From a virus, in the IMG/VR virus record IMGVR_UViG_3300036046_000003, positions 8,428 to 72,427 of that record: DNA of 64,000 nucleotides; one strand, written 5' to 3'. Numbering within the stretch: the first letter of the stretch is position 1; the number at the start of each line of letters is the position of its first letter. The notes under the pieces were generated by a model. That model did not search any database. It saw nothing but the letters and a program-made list of their open reading frames with translations, and was not told the origin of the DNA. The translations under genes were made by a program, and so were the position numbers. Positions 26,973 through 58,725 of the stretch are shown here, piece after piece.

Positions 26973-27035
26973 TAGCAGTGCGTTTAGTGCAGAAGGCCCA
27001 CTCCGTTCGGGGTGGGCTTTTTCTTTGGAATACTT

Positions 27036-29645
27036 ATGAGTTCTATTTCGCAGCTAGACCTTGTACTTTTAGGCCGACGAGGACTAACGGCTCGCCTGGG
27101 TGGGGTTGAACGCGCCATTCGTGACCTTTCGTTGGGCGTCGCACAAGAGGCAGTAGGCGCGGTTACGGGGGTGCGCCCTAATCTCCTTTCAAACGGCTCC
27201 TTCGAGTTCTACAATCGAGGCGAAACGAAACCAAACGAGTGGGCCGCGAGTGGTACGGTGTCTGTAGCGTCGGGGACGCTGGGCGCTGACGGTAGCGTGG
27301 TAGTGTTGCTTTCAGCGGGGGCCTCTATTAGTCAGTCTGTAGACGGGGGTCAACCGCAGAACGTTGGCGCGGGTACGCTGTCCCTGGCGGTTCGGGCCAC
27401 CGCACCTGCGACAATTACGTTGGCGGTTAACCACAGCGCCGCCACAAGCGGGCCAATCATTCGGTTGGGGCTTGACGGGGTAGAGGTCGAAACAAACGAA
27501 CATCCGGGCGACGGTACTTGGTATCGTTTCTTTCGGCAGTATCTCTTAACCGCCGCTGGTGCGGCTTCTGTGTCGGTGGGCTGCTCTGCCGGTTCTGTTG
27601 AAGCTGATGCCGTTAAATATGAGCGAGAAGACGGTACGGGTACGTTTATCGAACCCACGGCGTTTGTGGGAGGCGATTGGGGGGCTGCCGTCCAGCTACG
27701 CACCCTCAAAGCTGAGAATATTATTTCAGGCCAACTCACGGTTGGCGGGGCGGACAGTAACAACCCACGAATTAGCGTCCTTAACGGGGACAACGCCGAG
27801 ATTGTGACGATAGGAGACCCTGCAAGTGGGTTTCTTGGTATTGAGGTTAAGGACGCGGGGGGTATGCGGGTGAGTGGCAGCGGAGACGTGGCCGTTGTCG
27901 GCGGGGGGCGTATTTACGCGGGTATGCCCGCCGGGGGGCGGACTGAGCTGGCCGCCGCCGGGTTGGCGGGCTACAACGCGGCGAACGAGAAACAGGCGGA
28001 GCTGCAAAGCGCTACTGGTAAACTGCGCATTCTTGGGGTCGGCGGTCTGTCGGTAGAGAATGGGGCGTCCGTCGAAATTAAAGGCGGCGGCCATTTGCTT
28101 GTGGGTACGCCCGACGCGCAGCGTACCGAGGTTCGTAATTACGGGGTTGTTGGATACAACAACGACAACGAAGTTATTTTTGCGCTGAATGAGGCCGGTG
28201 TCGTCAATGGGGTCAACGTAGACGACGGCGATGTATTGATCGGCAACGCAGGCAACAATTACGCGCTTTGGGATAATTCTGCGGGCGAGCTTACTATTGT
28301 CGGAACAGTAATCGCGGGCGAAGGTAACGTCGAAATAGGTACGGCGGGTGTTACCTTGCTGAGTAGCGGCGTTAACTACAACGCACGAAACGCCGTGACC
28401 TGGGTAACTGACCTTTCCGAACCAAATACGGACTTTCCCGTAGCTGTGGTTTTTGGTGGAAGGCAAGAGGTTAGCCAGACAAATCCACGGGTACGCAAAA
28501 TTCTTGACCTGTACAGCGGGTCAATAAACGACGTGTTCTTCTCCCGCCCCGCCGGTAGCCCACAGGAAGACGGAAAGCTTACCTGTATCGCCATTGGCAC
28601 AAAAGACGGCGGACAAGCCAGTGCGTTTTACGGCGCGTTTGCTGGTACTGCCGCAGAAATGATATTCCATTCAGTTGCGCGGCGTATTGAAATTGGCGGA
28701 TCGGGCCTTTGTCGGAAAAACTCGACAAACACAAACCCGGCTTTTTTGCAGTGGGAAGCCGGGTTCGTAGAGTTGGGCGGAGAGGGCCATTCGGCGGGGG
28801 TGCGTACCCGTGGAACCCTCGACGTAAGAAAGCTGAACGCTGCGGGTGGTAGTAACGTTCAACTCGAAGGGCGCACCGCTCTCACCGACATAAACGACGG
28901 CTTTTTGCGGGTCAATCACGGCGAGCAGTACAGTGAAGGTGTTGCGGTGTCGGGCCGCTTACGCGCATTCGGCTGGCTCAGTGTCGGCAATGACGCGCTC
29001 AACTTCACACCCACCGGGTCTACCTGGGCTACAGGTGGGGCTACCTTACTCCTGAACGGCCTGGATACTACCTCGATTGTTTTCCACGACGCCAATAACC
29101 GCGTAGACGCGATTGTGGCGGGCGGGGGACTTCTGCGTATTGGGCCGGACATTGGCTTTGGCCCTGCGAATGTGGAGTTCTCAGGAACTACGGCATTCGG
29201 ACGCGCCCCTGTTTCAAACGTCCGGGCGGTTATGTTTGCGACAACGAATGACAGTAACGGACATAGCCTGTTTTGCGCGAACAACGGCTGGACGCAAAAC
29301 CACTTGTATATTCGCGGAGACGGCTTGCCCTGGGTCAATCAAGCCTGGGTTGTCGGTTCCGACGAACGCCTGAAAGAAGACATAGCCGACGTACCAAACG
29401 CCCTAGACCGTCTTCAAGGCGTTCGGCCCCGCTCCTACTACCTTCGAGCCGACGAGGCCCGTCAACGAAGGCGTCATTACGGCGTAGTCGCTCAGGAGTT
29501 GGTAGAGGTACTACCTGAACTGGTGTCAGAAGGGCAGGACGGCACACTGGCGGTGGCGTATGAAGAGCTGATCCCCCTGCTTGTGGGGGCCGTAAAAGAG
29601 TTGTCAGCGCGGGTTACAGCCCTTGAAGCGCGCCTGCGCTCGTAA
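27036..29645 (+). CDS. Tail fibre/spike with C-terminal intramolecular chaperone (peptidase S74)
   Basis: NLL.NGSFE carbohydrate-binding-like start; SDERLKEDI...YGVVAQEL...V.Y..L...LV.AVKEL. Confidence 0.85.
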   Translation: MSSISQLDLVLLGRRGLTARLGGVERAIRDLSLGVAQEAVGAVTGVRPNLLSNGSFEFYNRGETKPNEWAASGTVSVASGTLGADGSVVVLLSAGASISQSVDGGQPQNVGAGTLSLAVRATAPATITLAVNHSAATSGPIIRLGLDGVEVETNEHPGDGTWYRFFRQYLLTAAGAASVSVGCSAGSVEADAVKYEREDGTGTFIEPTAFVGGDWGAAVQLRTLKAENIISGQLTVGGADSNNPRISVLNGDNAEIVTIGDPASGFLGIEVKDAGGMRVSGSGDVAVVGGGRIYAGMPAGGRTELAAAGLAGYNAANEKQAELQSATGKLRILGVGGLSVENGASVEIKGGGHLLVGTPDAQRTEVRNYGVVGYNNDNEVIFALNEAGVVNGVNVDDGDVLIGNAGNNYALWDNSAGELTIVGTVIAGEGNVEIGTAGVTLLSSGVNYNARNAVTWVTDLSEPNTDFPVAVVFGGRQEVSQTNPRVRKILDLYSGSINDVFFSRPAGSPQEDGKLTCIAIGTKDGGQASAFYGAFAGTAAEMIFHSVARRIEIGGSGLCRKNSTNTNPAFLQWEAGFVELGGEGHSAGVRTRGTLDVRKLNAAGGSNVQLEGRTALTDINDGFLRVNHGEQYSEGVAVSGRLRAFGWLSVGNDALNFTPTGSTWATGGATLLLNGLDTTSIVFHDANNRVDAIVAGGGLLRIGPDIGFGPANVEFSGTTAFGRAPVSNVRAVMFATTNDSNGHSLFCANNGWTQNHLYIRGDGLPWVNQAWVVGSDERLKEDIADVPNALDRLQGVRPRSYYLRADEARQRRRHYGVVAQELVEVLPELVSEGQDGTLAVAYEELIPLLVGAVKELSARVTALEARLRS

Positions 29646-30465: not shown

Positions 30466-30873
30466 ATGCGGCGAGCGCTAATGCTTACCGACTTTCGAGC
30501 GTTTGAACTATTTACCGTTTGCCTCGAAATTGGCTGGGGTTTGCTTTTGCTCAACCCCTGGGTAGGAATTTTTAGTACCAGCCCCTCTTTCGCCGGTATG
30601 CGGCAGCTCGTGCCGTATGAGTGGGCCTGGGGGTTGTTCTTCCTCTTGTTTGGCCTTTTCCACGGGGCTTTATTTTTATCTGCTAGCGGGAGGTTTGCGC
30701 TGCTACCCGTTTTTCTGTGGGTATTTATCGTAATCCTTCTGCTGGAAGCCAATCCCTTTACGACGGGCGCGGTAGTGTACAGCCTGGTGGCGGTTTTTAA
30801 TTGCTGTGCGTTTCTGCGCTCGTATCTCTGGCGGCGGCAAACAGCCCGCATTAAAGGAGACCTGCGCGAATGA
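30466..30873 (+). CDS. Multi-TM membrane protein (lysis cassette)
   Basis: ~4 hydrophobic segments; paralog of next gene. Confidence 0.65.
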   Translation: MRRALMLTDFRAFELFTVCLEIGWGLLLLNPWVGIFSTSPSFAGMRQLVPYEWAWGLFFLLFGLFHGALFLSASGRFALLPVFLWVFIVILLLEANPFTTGAVVYSLVAVFNCCAFLRSYLWRRQTARIKGDLRE

Positions 30874-32448: not shown

Positions 32449-32973
32449 TCAATGCGACGCCTCCAATACGCGGACGATTGCTGCGGCGACCTGTCGGCAG
32501 AGCCGAGAACCGTTTGAACCGAACGCGGTTTCAATCTCTTTGGGCCGATACCCTTTGATCAACGCATAGGCTACTTGCCGCTCCTGTTCAAGCAGCCTCG
32601 GCAGGGCGTTCGATACGTCCACGTACACCAGTTGCTCGTCACTTCCCAACGGCGCGTTCTTAAACGCAAGGTAATGAACTTGCAGTACCGCCCGAACGGT
32701 CGCCTGGGTATAGCCGTTCTGGTCTATGTGGGCCAGTAGCGTAGCCGGGTCTCTTAAACGGTCGCTCGCGGCGCGGCTTACGGCGCGTGCAAGCCCTTCC
32801 GTACCTTGACCGTTGCGAATAGCGATACCCGCCGACACAAACGGGTCTTGTACGTCGCCACAACCATTAGCCAGCGCCTCTAGCAGACGCTCGGCTTCTG
32901 GCGGTGCGTCTGCGGAGCTGCGCCGATAAAGCCAAAGCACGAGACGGCCTACTTCTGAAATATCCCGACGCAT
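32449..32973 (-). CDS. Protein with C-terminal sigma70 region-4/LuxR-type HTH
   Basis: LPRL..QERQV......GY..KEI; AAGGAG RBS; TAGACA-N17-TATACT promoter upstream. Confidence 0.6.
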   Translation of the reverse strand: MRRDISEVGRLVLWLYRRSSADAPPEAERLLEALANGCGDVQDPFVSAGIAIRNGQGTEGLARAVSRAASDRLRDPATLLAHIDQNGYTQATVRAVLQVHYLAFKNAPLGSDEQLVYVDVSNALPRLLEQERQVAYALIKGYRPKEIETAFGSNGSRLCRQVAAAIVRVLEASH

Positions 32974-33131
32974 TGGATCTCCTTACATAGATACCCTCCT
33001 CTCTACCTTGGTTGCCTGACGGCGATTGTTGCGAAGCTCCCGTAGTATAGAGGACGTTCTATTAGCTGTCTACTTCCGCGTTGTATTGCTTCGCAGCTCC
33101 CCACCAACGCAGGTGTCGCCCCGCGATCAAG

Positions 33132-33699: not shown

Positions 33700-34047
33700 C
33701 TACCCCGTGGTGGATTTAATGTCCTTTATCCCCTTTTGGTACGCGGCGTCAATCTGATGCCTTGCGTTAAGGTATGCGTCATAGGCCGCTTTTAACTGCA
33801 ATTCTTTGTGTTGGTACAGCGCGTCGTATTTTTCGTAGTCGGCTTCTGTTGCGTCAAACAGCAATACACTGTCTTTAGCGACGTAAAGCCCGCCGCGAGC
33901 CTTCGTACCGTGAAGAGACCCCCCCCCCGGCGTGCGCCGTCCCGCTGCGTTCCTGACCGGCTCGACGTAGTAACGCGCCTCGGTTTCTCGCAGCACGCGA
34001 ACAAGTGCCCCGGCGCGATAGCTATCCTCTTTGGTGATAATTAGCAT
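33700..34047 (-). CDS. Hypothetical protein
   Basis: Translationally coupled ORF. Confidence 0.55.
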   Translation of the reverse strand: MLIITKEDSYRAGALVRVLRETEARYYVEPVRNAAGRRTPGGGSLHGTKARGGLYVAKDSVLLFDATEADYEKYDALYQHKELQLKAAYDAYLNARHQIDAAYQKGIKDIKSTTG

Positions 34048-42266: not shown

Positions 42267-42761
42267 TCACTTTCGATTGGCCTTCAATTGAAGTGCTAAC
42301 GCACCCGCGTACTCGCGCTTAGAATATGCGGGCCGTGTGTAGTCGAAACCGAACAAGCGCCGTACTGCTTCCCGCTCGTATTGGCGTGCGTCCCGTTCGT
42401 CGGGGGCGTTTTCGTAGCCCCAACGCCGCACCGGCCCCCGCTTCTCAGGAACGTACACTGACCCGTTCCAATACCAACCCCAGCGCCGATGCGACGCGCA
42501 GTACCGATAGTCGAGTACCCCCGTCACTTTTTGCCACAAGTGACGGCACTCGTGAGCAAGTGTCGAAAGTAGTTCGTCCTCCGAATAAGCGGTCGCCAGC
42601 CGGATCGTGTAGTCGCCTCCCCTCCAAGAAAACTCACCGCAACTATTTCTAGACCCGGGAACAGTTCGCCCCGGATAGAACTCCCAAGAAAGCGAAACCC
42701 CGGATAAACCAAGGTCTGCCAATACTTTATTGCGGTTGTCCTCTCCTAAAATGCCGTGCAT
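42267..42761 (-). CDS. Zincin-like metallopeptidase
   Basis: TLAHECRHLWQ (HExxH) and Y...P.E.DA. Confidence 0.75.
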   Translation of the reverse strand: MHGILGEDNRNKVLADLGLSGVSLSWEFYPGRTVPGSRNSCGEFSWRGGDYTIRLATAYSEDELLSTLAHECRHLWQKVTGVLDYRYCASHRRWGWYWNGSVYVPEKRGPVRRWGYENAPDERDARQYEREAVRRLFGFDYTRPAYSKREYAGALALQLKANRK

Positions 42762-42924: not shown

Positions 42925-43038
42925 TGGTCGGAAGACTAGGATTTGAACCTAGACGACGCTCACCCATATACGCCCCTGGGCTGTTGGCGTCACCCCTTCC
43001 AAGCGTGGGGCGCGGCTGCCAGATTTCGCCACCTTCCG
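42925..43038 (-). tRNA. Atypical 114-nt tRNA-like RNA, probably Pro(TGG)
   Basis: Acceptor CGGAAGG/TCTTCCG + A + CCA; D arm GCG..TGG..CGC; T arm CTAGG-TTCAAAT-CCTAG; CT-TGG-AA in an irregular anticodon arm; ~37-nt variable arm. Confidence 0.75.
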
Positions 43039-43074
43039 TAGCCAGGGGCCGGTCAAAACGGCCCCCGTAGCGCG

Positions 43075-43626
43075 TTACTGGCCTTGCAGCTCCGCCAAAC
43101 GGCTCTGCGCTTCGGCCAGCTCCCGTTCTCGGCGCGCCACTACTTGCCGCGCCGCGATTACTTCCCGCGTTTCATTACCCATTGCCCGGTCGTAATCCCG
43201 CAGCGCCGCTTCAACTTCGCCAGCGGTCAATCCTACCTCGCGACGCACTTCCGAAATTGCGGCTGCGATAGACACAACTTCGTTTCGCAAAAAGGCGCGA
43301 CAAACCTCCTCTTGCTCCAAAAGCGCCCCAACAAACTCTTGGGCCGCAGCGTAGGAAAGTCCCCGGCAGCGCCGCGCCGCCGCGATTACCGGACTTTCAG
43401 CCGCCGTAACGCCGCTCGTCTTTTGCAACCAGTCGTAGGCCGTTACAATGGCGGCACCCTCCAACACTGAAAGATACCTGTCTTCCAGCGCCGTTTGCAA
43501 TTTTGACCTATCCGCCCCGGACTTCACCGCCAGAAGGTCGGTAAGCTCGCGGACGGCCCCCTCGTCCTCGTAACTACTCGTATCGACACCCCCGGCAATC
43601 CAACGCCGTACCGCGTCTATACCCAT
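43075..43626 (-). CDS. Hypothetical helical protein
   Basis: 183-aa ORF. Confidence 0.55.
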   Translation of the reverse strand: MGIDAVRRWIAGGVDTSSYEDEGAVRELTDLLAVKSGADRSKLQTALEDRYLSVLEGAAIVTAYDWLQKTSGVTAAESPVIAAARRCRGLSYAAAQEFVGALLEQEEVCRAFLRNEVVSIAAAISEVRREVGLTAGEVEAALRDYDRAMGNETREVIAARQVVARRERELAEAQSRLAELQGQ

Positions 43627-43684
43627 TGGAGTTTCCTGTGTCTGAGGGGCCGCTGTTACGCGGCCCCGCTATTCTTCGTCGGCG

Positions 43685-46212: not shown

Positions 46213-46632
46213 CTAGTGAATAGGGACTAGCGCGGCGGGCTGCGCAGCGAACCACAGCCAAAGTAGCGCCAACGCGCAGAGGATTACAAGAAACAGTTTG
46301 AACCCTACTTTAAGCCGTCGCAAAAGCTTGCGAAGTCGCCGCTCTAACGGGTGCTGCGCTTGATTGATCGCGTCGTCCAGGGCGGCTACTGCGAACGCGG
46401 GGTCTACATTGAACCATTCTCCAGCAAGCCGCCATTTGGCAAGGCGTCTGTGTGTAGCTGCTTCGATTTCAAACGGCTTTGCGACAGGACGCCAGCCGCG
46501 TAAGTAGAGCCGCTGGCTATTCCCCGTTTGCAGTTGGCTCCGCCGACCGCCCTTGCTTTCCGGGTGTCGGTTCGCTTTGCCGACCTTTACCGGGCCGTTA
46601 TTACCTTCCTGGTAGACGTAAATACCTGCCAT
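46213..46632 (-). CDS. GIY-YIG (T5orf172/MUG113-like) domain with C-terminal TM
   Basis: IY...VKVG...R.SQLQTGN...E...H..L...GEWF; hydrophobic tail. Confidence 0.8.
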   Translation of the reverse strand: MAGIYVYQEGNNGPVKVGKANRHPESKGGRRSQLQTGNSQRLYLRGWRPVAKPFEIEAATHRRLAKWRLAGEWFNVDPAFAVAALDDAINQAQHPLERRLRKLLRRLKVGFKLFLVILCALALLWLWFAAQPAALVPIH

Positions 46633-47492: not shown

Positions 47493-48029
47493 TTAGGGAG
47501 TTTCGGAAATCTTTTTAACTAATGTACAGACTTTACGGTAGCGGTCGCCCCCGGTGGCCCCAAACACAAGGCGTATAGCCTCTGTTTTACTAGCCCCGCG
47601 ACCTATTAGCGTGCGGACTTCCCTTGCCCCCGCTTCGTCCAAGGGCCGTGACGCCGCCGCTTCACTTACCAGTTTTCTTTCGCGGTCAACCCGCCCCCTT
47701 GCTTTAGCGGTACGAAACGGTGGTTCAGTCGCCGTGCGTGTTCCTAACTCCGCGTCCAGGCGCGCCATTGCGTTCCCCAAATGAAACAACTGCTCTACGC
47801 GGTCTTTAGGCCCGCTAAACCACTCATTGCGAAATCTATAATCCTGCAAAAGTTCGTGAACTTCCCGCTCCACTCGGTACGGATTGGGCTGTTCGTAAGT
47901 GGCAACGACAGACTGCACGAGCGGGCAACCCGTTTGAAGGGTTTTCGTCCTTTGAAGCGCGTCGCTGTCTGTGACCCCAATCTTAAAATAGTCCGTATCG
48001 CCCATTTGAATTAAATAAACAAGCCCCAT
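47493..48029 (-). CDS. GIY-YIG (T5orf172-like) domain + C-terminal HTH-like domain
   Basis: VYLI...FKIG...LQTG.P...E..VH...NEWF; SKTEAIRLVFGATGG.RY. Confidence 0.8.
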   Translation of the reverse strand: MGLVYLIQMGDTDYFKIGVTDSDALQRTKTLQTGCPLVQSVVATYEQPNPYRVEREVHELLQDYRFRNEWFSGPKDRVEQLFHLGNAMARLDAELGTRTATEPPFRTAKARGRVDRERKLVSEAAASRPLDEAGAREVRTLIGRGASKTEAIRLVFGATGGDRYRKVCTLVKKISETP

Positions 48030-48033
48030 TAGC

Positions 48034-49854
48034 TTATTCCTGACTTTTGTGTTGCTGCGCGGTTTCCACAACAATTTTTACCGCCTCAAACTCGTATCGA
48101 AGCCGCTGGTACGCACGTCCGCCGGTAACGCCTGTAGTCTTTTTTAGCGCCGTTGCTACCTCATTTCCGTTTGTTTTGTAGACCTGCAAAGTTTTGACTA
48201 GTACCTTCCGGTTTTCCGCAGATAGCCTTCGAAACACCAAAAGCGCCTCCTTAAAGCTAGTTGGTACAAACTGACCTTCCCCCCTGAAAGGGCCGGAAGG
48301 CGCATTGTTACGCCTTGGAAGGTCATCGGAAGAGGAAGGCGACCCAGCTACCGCCAAGTTACCCACAGGTCTACCTTCCGCCTTGCCTTCCGTGTTATTT
48401 ACCGACCCTTCCAACAGTTCCGCCAGAAGGCATAGGCTATCCTCCGAAACCTCCCTGTTTGGCGCTTCGTTCGCTTGTACCCCCGCGAAGCCTGGATACG
48501 CAGGTGCCGCTATACTTTTCCGTGGAAGTCCCTCTACAATTTCGTCAAATCGGTCTTCGTTTGCTTCGGGGTCGCCGCGAAATATCGGCGTTCGCAGCAG
48601 CGTAAACTCCCCGCGAACTTTTGCCACAAAAACCCCCCGCTCCTGTGGCGGCGGTGGAATTTTGCTCGGTCGAAACGGCAGTGCGGTAGTGTCGCGTACT
48701 CCTAATGCTGGGCCGTCCTGAGAGCCGTCCACTAGCGCCCCAGCAAGCACCGTAGAGAGGTTCATTCGCCAATCCAGACCCTTTCCTGTTGGCGTTTGCA
48801 TAGATACCAACACCCGGATACCCAACGACCTCGCTTTGCTGACCAGGGCCGCCAAAAGCGCTTCCACTTCCCCTGTTATCGCGTCCATTACGTCCGTGAC
48901 CACCACCACAAGCAGCGGCAGCTCAGCGACCCCGCCTTGCGCCGCCCGTTTGTTGTACTGTTCTCGCGTTCGGCAGCCCGCCGAAACAAGCAACTCCTGG
49001 CGGCGCTCGGCCTCGGCGTCAATGACCTTGCAAGCCATTAGAATAGCTTCGCGGCCCTTTTTACCGTAGCCCCCCGCAGGCGGAAAGAACATATGAGACA
49101 GCCCCGACAGGGCGGGCACTAACCAATCTGATTTACCGTCCAGGAACGCAAACTGTAGCGTTTCCGGCCCGTTTCGGCTCGCCAAAAGCGCGAACCAACA
49201 GCGCAAGAGTGCGTCTTTTCCCGCCCCGCTCGTACCGTAAATACCTATATGAAGCAAATCCAGGGCAAGATCGCCCCACACCTGCTTTCCGAGATAATCT
49301 GTGCCCAACGGCACTGCGGTTGTGCTGGCAGGAAACGGCTGAAACTCACCCAAAAGCACGCGCTTTGGAAGTGCGTTTAGTGCAGAAGCCATTGACGCCG
49401 AGGGGCTTTGCAAGCCAGCAGGACGGCTTGCCGCGCCTTTTAGACCGTCGTCATCTTCCCGGCCACGCCCCTTCGACCTCTCCGGGGGCACAGCCGAGGT
49501 TTGAGCCGTTGCTACGGCTTGCGAAGTCGTAGCGCTGGGCGGCGTTTTTGCCGCTAGTTCTTTTCGAGCGGGGGCGGACAAGCGCGCCGGTGTAGTCTCT
49601 ACCAGCCGCACCAATCCCGGCCAGGAACCTTGCGCGTACGTATTCCGGGCCACCTGACGTGGGTCAATGGCTAAGGCTTTGCAAACGGCGGCGGCGACGG
49701 AGGGCGAACGGCGAAGAAAGTATTGACCGAGCGGCAGCAGGAAAAGAGGAGCTGCCCCAGCGGCTCCCCCTGCCACACCGATAGCCGCAAGCAAAATATC
49801 GGTCGCGTCGAATGGAGGTGGGTTTTTTGGCTTGTTCTCTATCGAAGTTTCCAT
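48034..49854 (-). CDS. FtsK/SpoIIIE/TraB-family ATPase with N-terminal TM
   Basis: HIGIYGTSGAGK, FAFLDGK, E.ERR, LPLLVVVVTD, KARSLGI.V..SMQ.P. Confidence 0.85.
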   Translation of the reverse strand: METSIENKPKNPPPFDATDILLAAIGVAGGAAGAAPLFLLPLGQYFLRRSPSVAAAVCKALAIDPRQVARNTYAQGSWPGLVRLVETTPARLSAPARKELAAKTPPSATTSQAVATAQTSAVPPERSKGRGREDDDGLKGAASRPAGLQSPSASMASALNALPKRVLLGEFQPFPASTTAVPLGTDYLGKQVWGDLALDLLHIGIYGTSGAGKDALLRCWFALLASRNGPETLQFAFLDGKSDWLVPALSGLSHMFFPPAGGYGKKGREAILMACKVIDAEAERRQELLVSAGCRTREQYNKRAAQGGVAELPLLVVVVTDVMDAITGEVEALLAALVSKARSLGIRVLVSMQTPTGKGLDWRMNLSTVLAGALVDGSQDGPALGVRDTTALPFRPSKIPPPPQERGVFVAKVRGEFTLLRTPIFRGDPEANEDRFDEIVEGLPRKSIAAPAYPGFAGVQANEAPNREVSEDSLCLLAELLEGSVNNTEGKAEGRPVGNLAVAGSPSSSDDLPRRNNAPSGPFRGEGQFVPTSFKEALLVFRRLSAENRKVLVKTLQVYKTNGNEVATALKKTTGVTGGRAYQRLRYEFEAVKIVVETAQQHKSQE

Positions 49855-51774: not shown

Positions 51775-52659
51775 CTACACCGGAACAGAAACCGCAGCGG
51801 GTCGCGTCGCCGGTTTCTCGCCGCGCCGCCGCAAATACAAACCCTCTAACCGCGCCGTTGCCTGCGCCGTATAGCGCTGCGTCGTCTCACAACGCTTATG
51901 CCCTGCTATACGCCGTACCGCGTCAATATCCCCCCCGTTGGGGTCGTCCAGCAACTCGGTAAGCAGTTGGTGGCGGAACAAATGAGGGTGAACGTCCGGG
52001 CGACCTACAACCGCGCCCAGCTCTGTAACAAGCTGCCGTACCCGTTGGTCGCTCAACTCAAACAAGCGCCCCGTTTTCGGAAAGCCGCGCAGCGCAAGAT
52101 AATGCCGAAGCGCCCCGGCTGTCTGGTGATCGAAATAGACTAGTCGCTCGTCTCCGCCTTTCCCCATTACCGTCGCCTTGCCCGCTTCGTCCGCGTGGCG
52201 GGGAAACTGCACGTTTTCGATACACAAACCCACGACTTCGCTTACGCGCCCGCCTGTGGCCCGCAACACCAGCAAAAGTGCCAGGTTACGCGCCCCCGCT
52301 ACCGTAGTGGTGTCGCAAGCACAGCACATTCCCTCAAACTCTTCCGGCGAAAGCAACTGCGGAAGTACCAGCGGTACTTTAACCCCGCGAACGGCAAGCG
52401 CCGCCAATACGTCGCCGCTTAGTAGCTCCTCCGCCACCGCCCAGGTCAAAAACGCACGTGCTGCCGACAGTCGCCGGTTCACCGTCGCCGGTGCGTAACC
52501 CTGCTGTAGTGCTTGCCGGTACGCGGCTAGTTGCTTTGGTCGCAACTCCTCTACGCTGTATCCGTTATCGGATAACCACTGAGAGAAGGCGCGGAGGTCA
52601 GCGGCGTAGGCGCGGCGGGTCTGCGGGGACTGTAGGGTATCGAGAAACCGGGGGAGCAT
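51775..52659 (-). CDS. Tyrosine recombinase (XerC/D-like)
   Basis: T.RAY..DL, TG.RVSE, GKG..ER, HPHLFRH, GH....T.RY. Confidence 0.93.
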   Translation of the reverse strand: MLPRFLDTLQSPQTRRAYAADLRAFSQWLSDNGYSVEELRPKQLAAYRQALQQGYAPATVNRRLSAARAFLTWAVAEELLSGDVLAALAVRGVKVPLVLPQLLSPEEFEGMCCACDTTTVAGARNLALLLVLRATGGRVSEVVGLCIENVQFPRHADEAGKATVMGKGGDERLVYFDHQTAGALRHYLALRGFPKTGRLFELSDQRVRQLVTELGAVVGRPDVHPHLFRHQLLTELLDDPNGGDIDAVRRIAGHKRCETTQRYTAQATARLEGLYLRRRGEKPATRPAAVSVPV

Positions 52660-53059
52660 AAAAGGAGCCTTTGCACTAACTGCACAAGTAGTATACGCGG
52701 TCTGTCAACTCTGCGCAACTGCGGCGTACTTTAGTCGGCGGGCGGCGGCGCGATCCCGTTCCTGGGCGCGGCGTTCTTTTGAGCGGGACGCCTCTACCGG
52801 CGGGTCTTCGTCCACGTACTCTTCTGCGGGGTTGTTTCGTTCACGCAGGCGGGGTTGCCGTTCTTTGCGAAGCACCAGTGTCTCCTTTCCTACCGCCGCG
52901 TACGGGGCGGCTAGCTCGAAAAGTATACAGTTGCTTCGCAGCGGCGTCTATCGAACGGGTCGGAATTGAACCTATTGCTAGTCGTTATCTCCGTAGACCG
53001 CCGAGGGGCTATTCCCTCTTGTGGGCAACCTAATGCGGGTTGCGTATACGGAGGGACGA

Positions 53060-54595
53060 ATGCCAGACGAGACAGTCAACGGGAACCTTACGGTGACGGG
53101 GACGGTGTACGCCGATAACTTTAGAACAGCGGCGTCTGGTTTGCTTTCTATCGAAAAAGATAACGCTAAACTAAACCTGTCACGCAGCTCTAATGTTACA
53201 ACGGCAAGCCTTAGTGTGGCTACTTCGGGCAGTATCGCGCTTGTCGCGGATAATGGAGAGACTATTGCTTCGTATCGTGCTTTGGCACACCGCTTCTATT
53301 TGGGCGGCTCTGCGCAACCCTTTTTCATCGCGGATAACAACCGACTAGAGTATGTCACCTCCTATTACGACAAGTATAGCGTTACCGGCGATAATGAAGC
53401 CGGTCAGATTGAAGTAAACGCCGTAACAAGCGGAGGGGCAGAGGCGGTACTCCAATCATACGCTGCGCGCCACGATTTTTTTGTTTTAGGCAACCACCGG
53501 GCTGCCTTTACCTCCGGATTAGAGCTTTATGGCGGGCAGGGAGCGGCCAGTGTCTCGGCGCGTAGTAATTCGGGTGGGGCCGCAATCCCGCTGGTGCTAA
53601 ACGGCAGTGACGTTGCTGTTACTGCCCCTTTTAGTGCCCCGTCCGTGTTGGTTTTCGGCCAGGTCAGCGCTGGTAATCTAAGTACGGTTGGTTCGATTGC
53701 TGCGCCGGGTGTGCTTATCCAGAACCAAAATATCCAGGCAAACGGTTGGCTGGCCTCTCAGTCTTTGTCGGCAGACCAGCGGATTGAACTGCGATCTATT
53801 GACGGCGGTGGCGTTCGCGTTCGCGCCAGTAACTTTGCAAACAACGCGCTCCGTCCGCTAGACCTGGAAGCTAGTGTAGTGAGAACGCCAGGGTGGGTCT
53901 CTGTCGGAAGTGGCACACAGAACTATACGCCAACTGGCTCCACCTGGGCTACCGGCGGCGCTACCTTGCTGCTGAATGGCCTGGATACGACTTCGATTGC
54001 TTTTCACGACGCCAATAACCGCGTGGACGCAATTGTAGCGGGCGGCGGTCTGATGCGCGTTGGGCCGGATACCGGCTTTGGCCCTGCGAACGTTCAAACC
54101 TACGGCTTTACCGGCGCGGGCGGCGTTCCTCTTGCGAACCAGCGTATGCGCGTCTATTCTAGCGGCGATAACAGCGGTCACTTCCCTCTCGCCGTTGTGA
54201 ATAGCGCAGGCAGCGCGGCGCTGATGTACGTTCGCGGCGATGGTTACGCCTGGACGAGCCAGCCGTGGGCTGTTGGCTCCGACGAACGCCTGAAAGACAA
54301 GGTTGAGCCGCTTGACGCTACCGCGCTAGAGAAGTTGGCCCAGGTTACGTTCCACCGCTACCAGCTTCGCGCAAACGGCCTCCCGCAAGTCGGGGTCATA
54401 GCGCAGGAGCTACAGCAGGTGTTCCCTGAACTGGTGAGCGAACACCACGACCCGGCCAACCCGAACGAGGCACCGCTGCTGGCGGTCAACTATCAGGGTC
54501 TCGCGGTCTACCAGGGAGCCGCAATCCAGCAACTCGCCGCAAAGGTTGCGGGCTTGGAAGAGCGTCTGGCCGCACTCGAAAAGCGCTTTGCCTAG
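53060..54595 (+). CDS. Second tail fibre/receptor-binding protein with S74 chaperone
   Basis: SDERLKD..., GVIAQELQ.VFPELV; ~60-aa block near-identical to 27036..29645. Confidence 0.85.
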   Translation: MPDETVNGNLTVTGTVYADNFRTAASGLLSIEKDNAKLNLSRSSNVTTASLSVATSGSIALVADNGETIASYRALAHRFYLGGSAQPFFIADNNRLEYVTSYYDKYSVTGDNEAGQIEVNAVTSGGAEAVLQSYAARHDFFVLGNHRAAFTSGLELYGGQGAASVSARSNSGGAAIPLVLNGSDVAVTAPFSAPSVLVFGQVSAGNLSTVGSIAAPGVLIQNQNIQANGWLASQSLSADQRIELRSIDGGGVRVRASNFANNALRPLDLEASVVRTPGWVSVGSGTQNYTPTGSTWATGGATLLLNGLDTTSIAFHDANNRVDAIVAGGGLMRVGPDTGFGPANVQTYGFTGAGGVPLANQRMRVYSSGDNSGHFPLAVVNSAGSAALMYVRGDGYAWTSQPWAVGSDERLKDKVEPLDATALEKLAQVTFHRYQLRANGLPQVGVIAQELQQVFPELVSEHHDPANPNEAPLLAVNYQGLAVYQGAAIQQLAAKVAGLEERLAALEKRFA

Positions 54596-55673: not shown

Positions 55674-56201
55674 TTACTCCCCGGCACAACGGCGAATGTC
55701 CTCTAGCGCCTCCTCTGTACTTGCAAACCAGTTGGGGATACGCTCTAGGTTCGGGTCGCTGGCCTGATAAATCAGGGCCGCTGCCGCGTTTGTTCCCAGC
55801 CGCGCCTCTAACGCCGCCCCGGCTTGCCCGGCGAGTGTTACTACCCAACCGGCCCGACAGTGGGTTGTCCCGCAGTGCCAGCTACCCATATCCAGCCCGC
55901 CTGTAGAGACCGCTTCAAGCAGTGCCCGGTGAATATTTGGCACTACGGGAATAACCGCAGGTAGAATGGCCCCGCTCAGGTTGGCCTCACACAGGTCGGC
56001 CCCGTTCAGGTCGGCGTTGCGCAGGTCGGCCCGGCGCAGGTCGGCCCCGCTCAGATTAGCCCCGCTCAGGTCGGCCCAGTACAGGTCGGCCCCGCTCAGG
56101 TCGGCCCCGCCAAGGTCGGCGTTGCTCAGGTTGGCGCGCGCCCCGTTCGGGTGGTCGTTCAGCCAAAGCTGATGGTTAGCGATCACTTCTTCGATATTCA
56201 C
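55674..56201 (-). CDS. Pentapeptide repeat protein
   Basis: A(D/N)LxG repeats; C-terminal CGTTHCRAGW. Confidence 0.9.
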   Translation of the reverse strand: MNIEEVIANHQLWLNDHPNGARANLSNADLGGADLSGADLYWADLSGANLSGADLRRADLRNADLNGADLCEANLSGAILPAVIPVVPNIHRALLEAVSTGGLDMGSWHCGTTHCRAGWVVTLAGQAGAALEARLGTNAAAALIYQASDPNLERIPNWFASTEEALEDIRRCAGE

Positions 56202-57575: not shown

Positions 57576-58328
57576 TTACTCGCCCGCACAACGGCGAATA
57601 TCCTCTAGCGTCTCTTCGTTACTCGCGAACCAGTTAGGAATACGCTTTAGAGACGGGTCGCTGGCCTGATAAATCAGGGCTGCTGCCGCGTTCGTTCCTA
57701 ACCGCTCCTCTAATGCCGCCCCCGCTTCTCCTGCCAGCATTACAATCCAGCCCGCCCTACAATGGGTTGTCCCGCAGTGCCTTCTACTCATAGCTAGCCC
57801 GCCCGTAGAGACCGCTTCGTAGAGCGCCTGGTGAATGTCGGGCACTACGGGGATACCGTCAGGGAGAAAGGCCCCGCTCAGGTCGGCCCCGCTCAGGTTG
57901 GCCCCGCTCAGGTTGGCGTAGCGCAGGTTGGCGGCGCTCAGGTCGGCGTCGCTCAGGTTGGCCCCGCTCAGGTTGGCCCTGCTCAGGTTGGCGTTGCGCA
58001 GGTTGGCCTCGCTCAGGTAGGCGTAGCGCAGGTCGGCCCCGCTCAGGTAGGCGTCGCTCAGGTTAGCCCCGCTCAGGTTGGCCCCGCTCAGGTTGGCGGC
58101 GCTCAGGTTGGCCTCGCTCAGGTAGGCCCCGCTCAGGTCGGCGTCGCGCAGGTTGGCGGCGCTCAGGTTGGCCTCGCTCAGGTAGGCCCCGCTCAGGTCG
58201 GCCCCGCTCAGGTTGGCCCCGCTCAGGTTGGCGTAGCGCAGGTTGGCGTAGCTCCGGTCGGCGCGAATGCCGTTAGGGTCGCCGTTCAACCAGAGCTGAT
58301 GGTTAGCGAGCACTTCGGTGATATTCAC
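57576..58328 (-). CDS. Pentapeptide repeat protein (longer paralog)
   Basis: More A(N/D/Y)LSG repeats, same N- and C-terminal domains as 55674..56201; GTG start at 58328. Confidence 0.9.
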   Translation of the reverse strand: MNITEVLANHQLWLNGDPNGIRADRSYANLRYANLSGANLSGADLSGAYLSEANLSAANLRDADLSGAYLSEANLSAANLSGANLSGANLSDAYLSGADLRYAYLSEANLRNANLSRANLSGANLSDADLSAANLRYANLSGANLSGADLSGAFLPDGIPVVPDIHQALYEAVSTGGLAMSRRHCGTTHCRAGWIVMLAGEAGAALEERLGTNAAAALIYQASDPSLKRIPNWFASNEETLEDIRRCAGE

Positions 58329-58356
58329 GACTAGGTACCTTTCTGTAGGTTGCTTC

Positions 58357-58725
58357 TTACGTAGACCGGGGGCGAACGTCGTCCGCTGAAACCCAACCCT
58401 CTTCTTCGGGCGCTTCGGGCCAATGAACCAGATACGGGAGGTCTCTATCGCAATCATCTACCTCTACAACCTCCCCGGCGATCCAACTGCCCTTGACGTA
58501 TACCTCTACGGCGTCTCCCTCTTCGTAAAGCAGCGCGTCCGGGTAATCCCCGTCCGCGTTCGCGTCCGGGTCAGGAACAAATTCGTTCCTGACGGCCCAC
58601 TCTACCGCGTCCGAAAAAGACAGTTCGTAAACGAGTGAGCTAATCAAGTTCTGCGCAGTTGCGTTCAGGCCCGCGTGGTTGTCGAACAGCGATCCTAGCA
58701 AGTCTTCTCGATTGACGTAGACCAT
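58357..58725 (-). CDS. Hypothetical protein with Tudor/SH3-like C-terminus
   Basis: GD.VEV...G.W..GEV......YLVHW......WV....VRP. Confidence 0.6.
   Translation of the reverse strand: MVYVNREDLLGSLFDNHAGLNATAQNLISSLVYELSFSDAVEWAVRNEFVPDPDANADGDYPDALLYEEGDAVEVYVKGSWIAGEVVEVDDCDRDLPYLVHWPEAPEEEGWVSADDVRPRST

Follow-up and report, generated by a model that had tools for sequence, protein, structure and literature searches.

A Leu/Pro-chimeric tRNA-like gene with an expanded UGG loop and a giant variable arm in a tailed phage, a candidate non-decoding tRNA mimic

What is the role of a phage gene that has the body of a tRNA and a malformed codon-reading arm? The question is raised by IMG/VR virus record IMGVR_UViG_3300036046_000003, a sequence of 72,427 bp with direct terminal repeats and rated 100% complete, of which bases 8428-72427 were analysed (64,000 nucleotides (nt); hereafter the window). 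A tRNA-like gene of 114 nt, including an encoded CCA, occupies 42925..43038 on the minus strand; it is single-copy in the phage genome and the sole tRNA-like gene there. An earlier reading made from the letters (the sequence-only reading) had described it as a chimeric tRNA-like RNA. The present analysis suggests that its product may be a processed, non-decoding tRNA mimic of the T4 rnaC or T5 RNA1 kind, possibly leucylated or prolylated, that would occupy a tRNA-binding protein; this reading, drawn from sequence, is held with about as much belief as doubt.

The anatomy of the element was derived from its sequence, its minimum free energy (MFE) cloverleaf and its alignment with Rfam model RF00005, and is numbered from window base 43038 (position 1); all parts lie on the minus strand. 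The acceptor stem is formed by CGGAAGG (43032..43038), which begins with C1, and UCUUCCG, which ends with G72. All seven bases are paired with 42929-42935, the last pair being G.U, and A73 and the encoded CCA follow at 42928-42925, so that the 3' segment as a whole covers 42925..42935. U8 and G9 stand between the acceptor stem and a D arm of the class II (Leu) type (43012..43029), consisting of a 3-bp stem (GCG/CGC) and a 12-nt loop that bears A14, A15, G18 and G19; the D-arm sequence GGCGAAATCTGGCAGCCGCG spans 43030-43011. The position of the anticodon arm is taken by a hairpin (42992..43011; hereafter hairpin A) that was evident in both sequence and fold and has a GCCCC/GGGGU stem and a 10-nt loop, ACGCUUGGAA. 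CCCC (43010-43007) pairs with GGGG (42996-42993) and a flanking G.U pair brings this stem to 5 bp, while the loop (43006-42997) consists of ACG followed by CTTGGAA and is alternatively readable as 8 nt closed by an A.A mismatch. The variable arm (42955..42991; hereafter hairpin B), defined from sequence, fold and comparison with a homologue, is a two-tier structure of 37 nt: GACGC/GCGUC forms the outer stem and GCCCA/UGGGU the inner one, the two are separated by a 5-nt internal loop, and the inner stem is capped by the 10-nt loop GGGGCGUAUA. Two linker bases separate it from the T arm, CUAGG-UUCAAAU-CCUAG (42936..42952), which was recognized from sequence and from the RF00005 alignment. The features listed by the sequence-only reading (C1:G72, A73, CCA, stems, loop and arm) are all present, on a strand that it did not state.

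With respect to the body, the element is a canonical tRNA: the 7-bp acceptor stem, the 5-bp T stem, the conserved D- and T-loop nucleotides, A73 and CCA were all found. The 29 pairs of the cloverleaf are intact (29/29) and U8, A14, A15, G18, G19, the UUCAAAU T loop and C61 are present. The canonical anticodon arm, with 5 bp, a 7-nt loop, U33 and a purine at 37, is absent. What RNase P, the CCA end and the synthetases that read the tRNA body require therefore appears intact as judged from sequence, and the part needed by the ribosome and by prolyl-tRNA synthetase (ProRS) does not.

Standard detectors did not accept the gene. ARAGORN reported no tRNA or transfer-messenger RNA (tmRNA) in the 64-kb window, and Rfam 15 at gathering thresholds gave no match anywhere in the window. 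A permissive search of 601 bases matched RF00005 to 42928-43038 (minus) with 27.6 bits, as compared to a gathering score of 29, and an E value of 0.0014; over the whole 72,427-bp genome RF00005 gave no match at threshold and no other tRNA gene. The acceptor, D and T arms were well covered in the 601-base alignment; 35 nt at the anticodon arm were treated as an insertion, as was the variable arm. The tRNA-finder checks proposed by the sequence-only reading thus aligned the three body arms without producing a call. Unconstrained folding (ViennaRNA) gave a four-arm cloverleaf as the MFE structure, at -43.8 kcal/mol, with G7-C11 taken into a longer D helix. Single-sequence statistics are weak for this element, and the case rests on comparison instead: it was judged to be more than chance because of a full-length homologue with compensatory stem changes, the match of that homologue to tRNA-Leu, and a T arm and 3' strand of the tRNA-Pro type.

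Three established categories were considered and rejected. No Rfam intron family matched, which argues against an intron-bearing tRNA; ARAGORN with introns allowed forced a tRNA-Gly(gcc) with A at 33 and a 23-nt 'intron' starting at a non-canonical place, and the same mode applied to look-alikes from other phages returned scattered unrelated isotypes. A tmRNA or a YrlA-type RNA was rejected on the grounds of no ARAGORN tmRNA, no Rfam match and no TROVE domain in the scanned open reading frames (ORFs). An allo-tRNA or tRNA-Sec-like molecule was rejected as the arrangement of acceptor and T stems is 7/5, and not 8/4, 9/3 or 8/5.

Relatives were sought by exact-pattern scans, whose reach is to close relatives. 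A degenerate pattern comprising a Leu-type D loop, 50-80 free bases and a T loop matched 95 stretches in IMG/VR, and a tighter pattern matched 32 metagenome contigs and 2 genomes. Exact DNA patterns taken from the element had no matches. A pattern for the 3' end recovered, in the viral collection, only the known contig of the homologue described below and, in genomes, one tRNA-Pro and one fragment. For a 16-base pattern (two N and 14 specified bases), 237 of 239 among the matches listed were not tRNA-like and none overlapped an ARAGORN tRNA; the sole gain among those listed was a C1:G72/A73 look-alike with a different centre (L291).

One sequence from these scans, L053, is a true full-length homologue. 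It lies on the minus strand of a phage contig (1943-1841 in L053/L490), the same sequence having been recovered as L196, L221 and L487 and, within a 7.8-kb contig, as L490. The first 30 nt of the homologue, and likewise its last 27, are almost the same as in the window element, and the similarity continues into the central stems (..GGTGAYG...ACAGC..). The two RNAs were laid side by side on the cloverleaf, with segments cut by coordinates, and compared at 29 pairs: 18 were unchanged, 5 had changed on both sides, 3 had changed on one side, 2 were broken and 1 was absent. One of the both-sided changes is in the acceptor stem, one in hairpin A (C-G to A-U), two in the outer stem and one in the inner stem of the variable arm, where two further pairs had changed on one side. 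Covariation between homologues, a check put forward by the sequence-only reading, was therefore observed, with 5/29 pairs altered on both sides in L053 and still pairing, and the giant variable arm with nested stems emerges as a conserved two-tier hairpin with compensatory changes and not as random filler. In an alternative fold of L053 the inner hairpin has 6 pairs and the outer stem is given up.

L053 retains the two central hairpins, and its loop A (AAGUGUA) lacks U33 and lacks UGG. L053 is separated by 3 nt from a following class I tRNA-Pro(UGG) of the ordinary kind, which ARAGORN calls and which scores 43.4 bits. The T arm of this gene and its 3' acceptor strand are almost the same as those of L053; decoding is thus supplied separately at that locus. 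The phages carrying L053 and its tRNA-Pro are unrelated to the window phage, and the same chimera recurs in another phage and in a metagenome that was assembled independently, which indicates that the element is not a misassembly. Upstream of L053, at L490:1944-2080 (minus), two more T-loop-like motifs (CAGGTTCAATTCCTGG and GAGAGTTCGAATCTCTC) were noted, which may be further tRNA-like pieces; no tRNA was called there.

The ancestry of the element is mixed. Positions 2-30 of L053 match annotated tRNA-Leu genes of Salmonella phage smaug and Escherichia phage ESCO40 (93%, E 6e-3), and the alignment with the smaug gene covers the D arm and the start of the stem after it, both of which are common to the window element and L053. 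Other phage contigs and a Terriglobia genome have tRNA-Leu genes, called by ARAGORN, with the same type of D arm. At the other end, the last 27-28 nt of the window element are similar to tRNA-Pro genes annotated in phages, a likeness that is weak alone (89% identity, E 1-4), and the T arm and ...CCGACCA end are the same as in an ARAGORN-called Clostridiaceae tRNA-Pro(UGG). The tRNA-Pro genes of Terriglobia start with CGGG.., have the T loop GGTTCAAATCC and end in ..CCCGACCA. A Leu-type front joined to a Pro-type end justifies the term 'chimeric', and the claim of a chimeric tRNA-like gene was borne out, with tRNA-Leu-type D arm and start of the next stem, tRNA-Pro-type end and T arm, and a second phage in possession of it. 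An isolated tRNA-Pro 3' fragment (..GCAGGTTCAAATCCTAGCACCCCGACCA) without a 5' half, as left by integrative elements, was observed in a metagenome-assembled genome (MAG) of Gammaproteobacteria (L531).

The sequence-only reading had credited the gene with Pro identity elements. As set out in the accessible part of PMC9976931, the bacterial Pro set comprises G72, A73, G35, G36, G15:C48, G37, G49 and U17a. Measured against the set as given there, G72, A73, U17a and the letters of G35/G36 are present, the UGG being located in an expanded loop, whereas the Levitt pair is A15:U48 and not G15:C48, position 37 is A and not G, and position 49 is C and not G; L053 is without UGG, so that the claim holds in part. 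The same portion of that source describes leucine identity in Escherichia coli as depending mainly on A73 and A14, with the anticodon arm dispensable for leucylation, and by this account the Leu determinants A73, A14 and U8:A14 are present in both the window element and L053. As a Leu-type class II tRNA, the element fits with respect to the D arm and A73 and departs in having a variable arm of 37 nt, as compared to ~12-16 nt in the compared tRNA-Leu genes, no Leu anticodon, and C1:G72 where those genes have G1:C72.

Decoding relatives of the same body type exist. A collection was made of 78 unique 'long' class II-bodied sequences (L004-L098 and L216-L247, from IMG/VR and metagenomes), each with at least 6/7 acceptor pairs, of which 5 combine a stem of 5 bp with a 7-nt loop that contains U33 and, at 37, a purine. 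Three of these five (L074, L042 and L218/L230) carry UGG and A73, and a fourth UGG gene from outside the 78, L494, was obtained from the genome scan. The UGG genes are found at L494:1494-1596 (Terriglobia MAG), L218:1494-1593, L488:4708-4805 and L489:4630-4730. L494 is situated on a 2.2-Mb contig of the Terriglobia MAG, adjoining an IS1595-family transposase, and L074, for which blastn against cultured phages gave no match, is the one tRNA in the complete genome of a 61-kb phage. The four relatives score 47.8-54.6 bits with RF00005, above threshold, and when aligned they give a consensus cloverleaf of 24 pairs, 9 of which have changed on both sides, with a UUGG in the loop that does not vary. 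They have in common with the window element the Leu-type D arm, A73, a G26.U44-type closing pair, the T arm and UUGG in the loop, and the L494 loop, CUUGGAA, is identical to the last seven letters of the hairpin A loop. They differ from it in having G1.U72 or G1-C72 with a Leu-like acceptor instead of the Pro-type C1:G72, in having a canonical 7-nt anticodon loop in place of an anticodon arm of altered length, and in having differently laid-out variable arms (~27-31 nt). Relative to these genes, the window element has three extra nucleotides on the 5' side of the loop, or one extra nucleotide plus an A.A mismatch at 31-39. Neither the chimeric type nor a Leu-bodied tRNA(UGG) was found described in the literature searched, including the available main text, supplements excepted, of PMC7609411, PMC10690425, PMC5389517 and PMC7824862.

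These relatives give substance to a different explanation, namely that the gene is a recently inactivated class II-bodied tRNA(UGG) in which small indels in the anticodon arm have left a relic that is now neutral. Relatives with the same body have a canonical 5-bp stem (6 bp with G26.U44) and a 7-nt UGG loop and pass the RF00005 threshold, CUUGGAA is still present in the window loop, and the defect is small (~+2/-1 nt, or +1 nt plus the A.A mismatch). The two broken pairs of L053 point in the same direction, as does codon usage: among the 780 Pro codons of the phage (CCA 121, CCC 207, CCG 285, CCU 167; an unremarkable distribution) CCA is the rarest (121/780), and loss of the tRNA would therefore cost little. 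No other damage was seen in 114 nt, however, with 29/29 pairs and all elbow nucleotides intact, and anticodon-less copies are the majority of this body type (73/78). L053 combines five double compensatory changes with the lack of an anticodon, a pattern that argues for long-term maintenance of a non-decoding form. Inactivation is accordingly regarded as possible and rather doubtful. The sequence-only reading had cited intact acceptor and T stems as evidence against decay; this was reasonable for the window copy, whose stems are intact, and is not decisive given that the sole homologue has two broken pairs.

The same loop could instead belong to a working, odd decoder, charged with Pro or Leu, that would read CCN codons poorly or suppress +1 frameshifts through four-base reading by the enlarged loop. 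The 3' side of the loop (a U33-like U, UGG, A, A and the GGGG strand) is canonical and identical to that of a bona fide relative. With the A.A mismatch as closing pair the loop has 8 nt, the known loop size of frameshift suppressors such as Salmonella sufA6/sufB2, which are derived from tRNA-Pro. The element is moreover the only tRNA-like gene of the phage, and it has Pro determinants (G72, A73, U17a and the G35/G36 letters) as well as Leu determinants (A73, A14 and U8) as far as these are given in the part of PMC9976931 cited above. Against decoding stand the location of the extra nucleotides on the 5' side, before position 32 and neither within nor past the anticodon, the loop of L053 with neither U33 nor UGG, and an arm that no detector accepted. 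This explanation is considered improbable.

The remaining 73 of the 78 sequences, the window element among them, do not have the 5-bp stem and 7-nt loop with U33 and R37. In the other members, the centre consists of 36-80 nt of highly varied hairpins framed by the acceptor stem, Leu-type D arm and T arm; that the 78 have the last two in common follows from the search patterns, which demanded them. Many of the 73 lie among ordinary tRNA genes and most were missed by ARAGORN. Many class members were seen to have an acceptor of AGTCAGG/CCTGACT followed by A and to be placed in rows of tRNA genes, where two occasionally stand in tandem (L014, L017). A conserved family of tRNA-like genes at 24 metagenome loci (L216, L217, L220, L222-L226, L228, L229, L231, L232, L234, L236-L244, L246 and L247) has the window D arm (GGCGAAATCGGCAGCCGCG), a long stem with a 5-nt loop (GAG..GCGC-NUUAR-GCGC..CUC) at the position of the anticodon arm, a short second hairpin next to it and then a ..CGCCA end.

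Characterized phages encode RNAs of comparable build, i.e. a tRNA-like acceptor, T and D body without an anticodon arm, and this anatomy is that of the window element. In the T5 record (AY543070), RNA1 (30501-30644) and RNA2 (32959-33083) are annotated as 'tRNA-like stable RNA with unknown functions' and RNA3 (33877-33949) as 'putative tRNA-like RNA'. Like the window element, all three are phage-encoded and have an acceptor-like terminal helix, a T arm with a GGTTC..A.TCC loop and a long non-anticodon centre; RNA1 also has a Leu-type D arm (..GGAATTGGTAGAC..). The T5 RNAs differ in belonging to a tRNA gene row of a virulent phage, whereas the window element is solitary and in a temperate phage, in the absence of sequence homology in the centre and in the imperfect terminal helix of RNA1; they were seen as stable RNAs according to the annotation, whereas the window element is known as a sequence. 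In the T4 record (AF158101), rnaC (70908-71046) and rnaD (71053-71171), i.e. species 1 and 2, are each annotated as 'small, stable RNA' beside tRNA genes. As in the window element, rnaC ends with a T arm (CCGGG-UUCGAAU-CCCGG) and two long hairpins replace the anticodon arm. Unlike the window element, rnaC and rnaD (139 and 119 nt) lack a class II D arm and, in the fold, a clean acceptor of 7 bp, and they have no sequence similarity to it.

Two further groups were compared. YrlA-type Y RNAs (RF02553) resemble the role proposed here in being non-decoding mimics of the acceptor, D and T body. The ends of YrlA RNA lie outside the acceptor-like helix; the window element had no Rfam match to this family even at E up to 10 over 601 bases, and no Ro/TROVE protein was present among the scanned ORFs. 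Allo-tRNAs and irregular tRNAs of Acidobacteria and phages, in so far as they are described in the accessible text of Mukai et al. 2017 (PMC5389517), are similar to the window element in having a long variable arm and an anticodon unfit for the body; further points of likeness are that some members are proposed not to be used in translation and that the group is associated with mobile elements. By that text, the defining traits of allo-tRNAs are serine identity and an acceptor/T split of 8/4 or 9/3, whereas the window element is 7/5 with A73.

How a non-decoding mimic would work can be outlined from this anatomy. The RNA would be transcribed together with the minus-strand replication genes, the tRNA-like top half (acceptor stem and D/T elbow) would direct the 5' cut by RNase P, and the encoded CCA would become the mature 3' end. 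The product would fold into an L shape whose elbow and acceptor end resemble a Leu/Pro hybrid, with the arm in the anticodon place carrying a loop of 10 nt (or of 8 nt, closed by A.A) that is perhaps, on weak evidence, paired with the loop of the variable arm. Since the codon-reading arm is malformed, the RNA most likely works through binding: it would act by being bound, and perhaps charged, by proteins that recognize the tRNA body, as a competitor or decoy. The sequence-only reading had put forward a decoy or nuclease-resistant tRNA, a frameshift suppressor and a scaffold as candidate roles. Which protein is bound is a guess, the candidates being leucyl-tRNA synthetase (LeuRS), ProRS or a host tRNA-directed defence or toxin nuclease.

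The suggested contact between the loops derives from a comparison of the two copies. In the window element, ACGCUU of loop A and GGGCGU of the variable-arm loop can form 6 contiguous pairs (4 Watson-Crick and 2 G.U), which was equalled by 3.8% of loop shuffles; in L053, GUGUA and UACGC can form 5 pairs, equalled by 0.9% of shuffles. The loop letters differ and complementarity is kept across the two copies, which is suggestive of a loop-loop contact as a hypothesis only. An extended version of the mimic would be 'locked': a Leu/Pro body processed, and perhaps charged, by the host, in which kissing loops bar decoding, which would serve as a decoy for a factor targeting tRNA-Pro or tRNA-Leu or as a donor of activated amino acid, and which would be an offshoot of an undescribed Leu-bodied tRNA(UGG) lineage on phages and insertion-sequence-linked loci. 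This version is speculative and judged unlikely.

Several observations weigh against a maintained mimic and against the loop contact. The fold energy is no better than that of shuffles (z = -0.93, 31/200 shuffles being as stable or more so). A single close homologue was found; its broken pairs are G.A (acceptor stem) and G.G (T stem), its score is 22.3 bits with RF00005, and such mismatches and a low score mean that both copies could be decaying. The window loop keeps the CUUGGAA of the canonical L494, with which a recent break or residual decoding would fit equally well. Among the 58 window ORFs that were scanned, Pfam recognized no synthetase, CCA-adding enzyme, RNA ligase, reverse transcriptase or Ro protein, so that the context, with no tRNA-related enzyme, suggests no partner. 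The loop complementarity was noticed post hoc in two sequences, and in one of them, L053, part of it falls on what may be an additional U.G closing pair. Kissing loops as a rule of the class were rejected, as 2/24 two-hairpin members gave p<0.05 when ~1 was expected, and neither loop had an antisense target in the window beyond chance.

Examination of the genome shows a tailed phage, with a serine recombinase, terminase, portal, protease, major head protein, tail fibres and a tyrosine integrase, that is probably temperate. It is nearly an orphan. The two proteins flanking the element had no relatives in IMG/VR viral contigs, the terminase had only 2 matches (25-36% identity), the capsid protein had no match in genome contigs and blastn of a 2.6-kb region against cultured phages gave no match; synteny was therefore unusable. 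An acidobacterial host, an idea arising from the shared D arm and L494, was unsupported, the capsid having 1 weak match (26%) in 401 Acidobacteriota genomes.

A 313-nt gap within a long run of minus-strand genes, a replication-gene operon, holds the element, which is intergenic, being overlapped by no ORF of at least 60 aa. A DnaB-like helicase, a primase, MazG, a methyltransferase and a SprT-like peptidase are encoded on one side of the RNA, and two unknown ORFs, two T5orf172 proteins and an FtsK-like ATPase on the other. The upstream neighbour is a 183-aa ORF (43075..43626, minus) whose stop lies 37 nt before the RNA 5' end; it belongs to no Pfam or PHROG family and has a single relative, 99% identical, among 5.8 billion proteins. 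The downstream neighbour (42267..42761, minus) encodes a putative metallopeptidase of 164 aa, SprT-like/DUF6782, and begins 163 nt past the CCA; no second structured RNA was supported in this 163-nt spacer (z -0.93). No sigma-70-like promoter or intrinsic terminator was found on the minus strand in the intergenic gap, the one listed minus-strand terminator-like site (42717-42695) falling within the downstream ORF. The absence of a promoter and terminator of its own suggests that the RNA is transcribed with the minus-strand genes and most likely cut from a polycistronic transcript.

A G+C-rich hairpin of 9 pairs with the core GGGGCCG/CGGCCCC (43043..43067, minus) ends 4-6 nt before position 1; it has no T run and is absent from the terminator list. 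A similar G+C-rich hairpin, also with no T run, is present at 43646-43667 after the next upstream gene, and each of the two is located directly past the stop of a minus-strand ORF. The pair may represent a repeated processing or termination signal of the operon.

The presence of a tyrosine integrase and a serine recombinase in this phage brings in a further possibility, that the gene has another purpose, either as a tRNA scaffold for a functional hairpin (antisense or protein-binding) or as a tRNA-Pro-derived attachment or recombination site for the integrase. The hypervariable centres and constant body of the class would suit a scaffold, and tRNA-Pro 3' fragments do exist as genome remnants (L531). 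The first loop pattern, however, had 1 match in the window (itself) as compared to 5.0 expected, and the second had 10 as compared to 4.5 expected, all but itself mismatched. The integrase gene is ~9 kb off, and the element is a complete cloverleaf with co-adapted acceptor strands and not a 3' fragment. Such purposes are regarded as highly improbable.

Other features of the window were noted in passing. A tyrosine recombinase adjoins a second tail-fibre-like gene (51775-52659 (-), 53021-54595 (+), 27012-29645 (+)); the C-terminal part of the second fibre-like gene matches the PHROG tail-fibre families of the main fibre gene and its orientation opposes that of the surrounding genes, and the recombinase and second fibre gene may form a host-range switching cassette. 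Two pentapeptide-repeat proteins (PF00805, E 7.7e-25 and 3.1e-48) are encoded in the early region at 55674-56201 (-) and 57576-58457 (-), and two T5orf172/MUG113-domain proteins lie near each other, at 46213-46632 (-) and 47493-48074 (-), upstream of the operon segment that contains the RNA.

Anticodon-less tRNA-shaped phage RNAs are known from T4 and T5, going by the annotation of those records, with no function assigned, and the body type is common in uncultured phages, 73/78 of the unique sequences collected having no anticodon arm. What is new here is the combination of a Leu/Pro chimeric body, an expanded UGG loop and an arm of 37 nt in a probable member of a known but unexplained kind of phage RNA. 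Should the related Leu-bodied tRNA(UGG) be charged by LeuRS, leucine would be inserted at proline codons, a deliberate mistranslation carried by mobile elements. With a readable ancestry, sisters in which UGG is intact and a homologue that lies beside a tRNA-Pro, the element is a convenient case for the question of how a decoding tRNA becomes a mimic, and it bears on which host protein such a mimic addresses.

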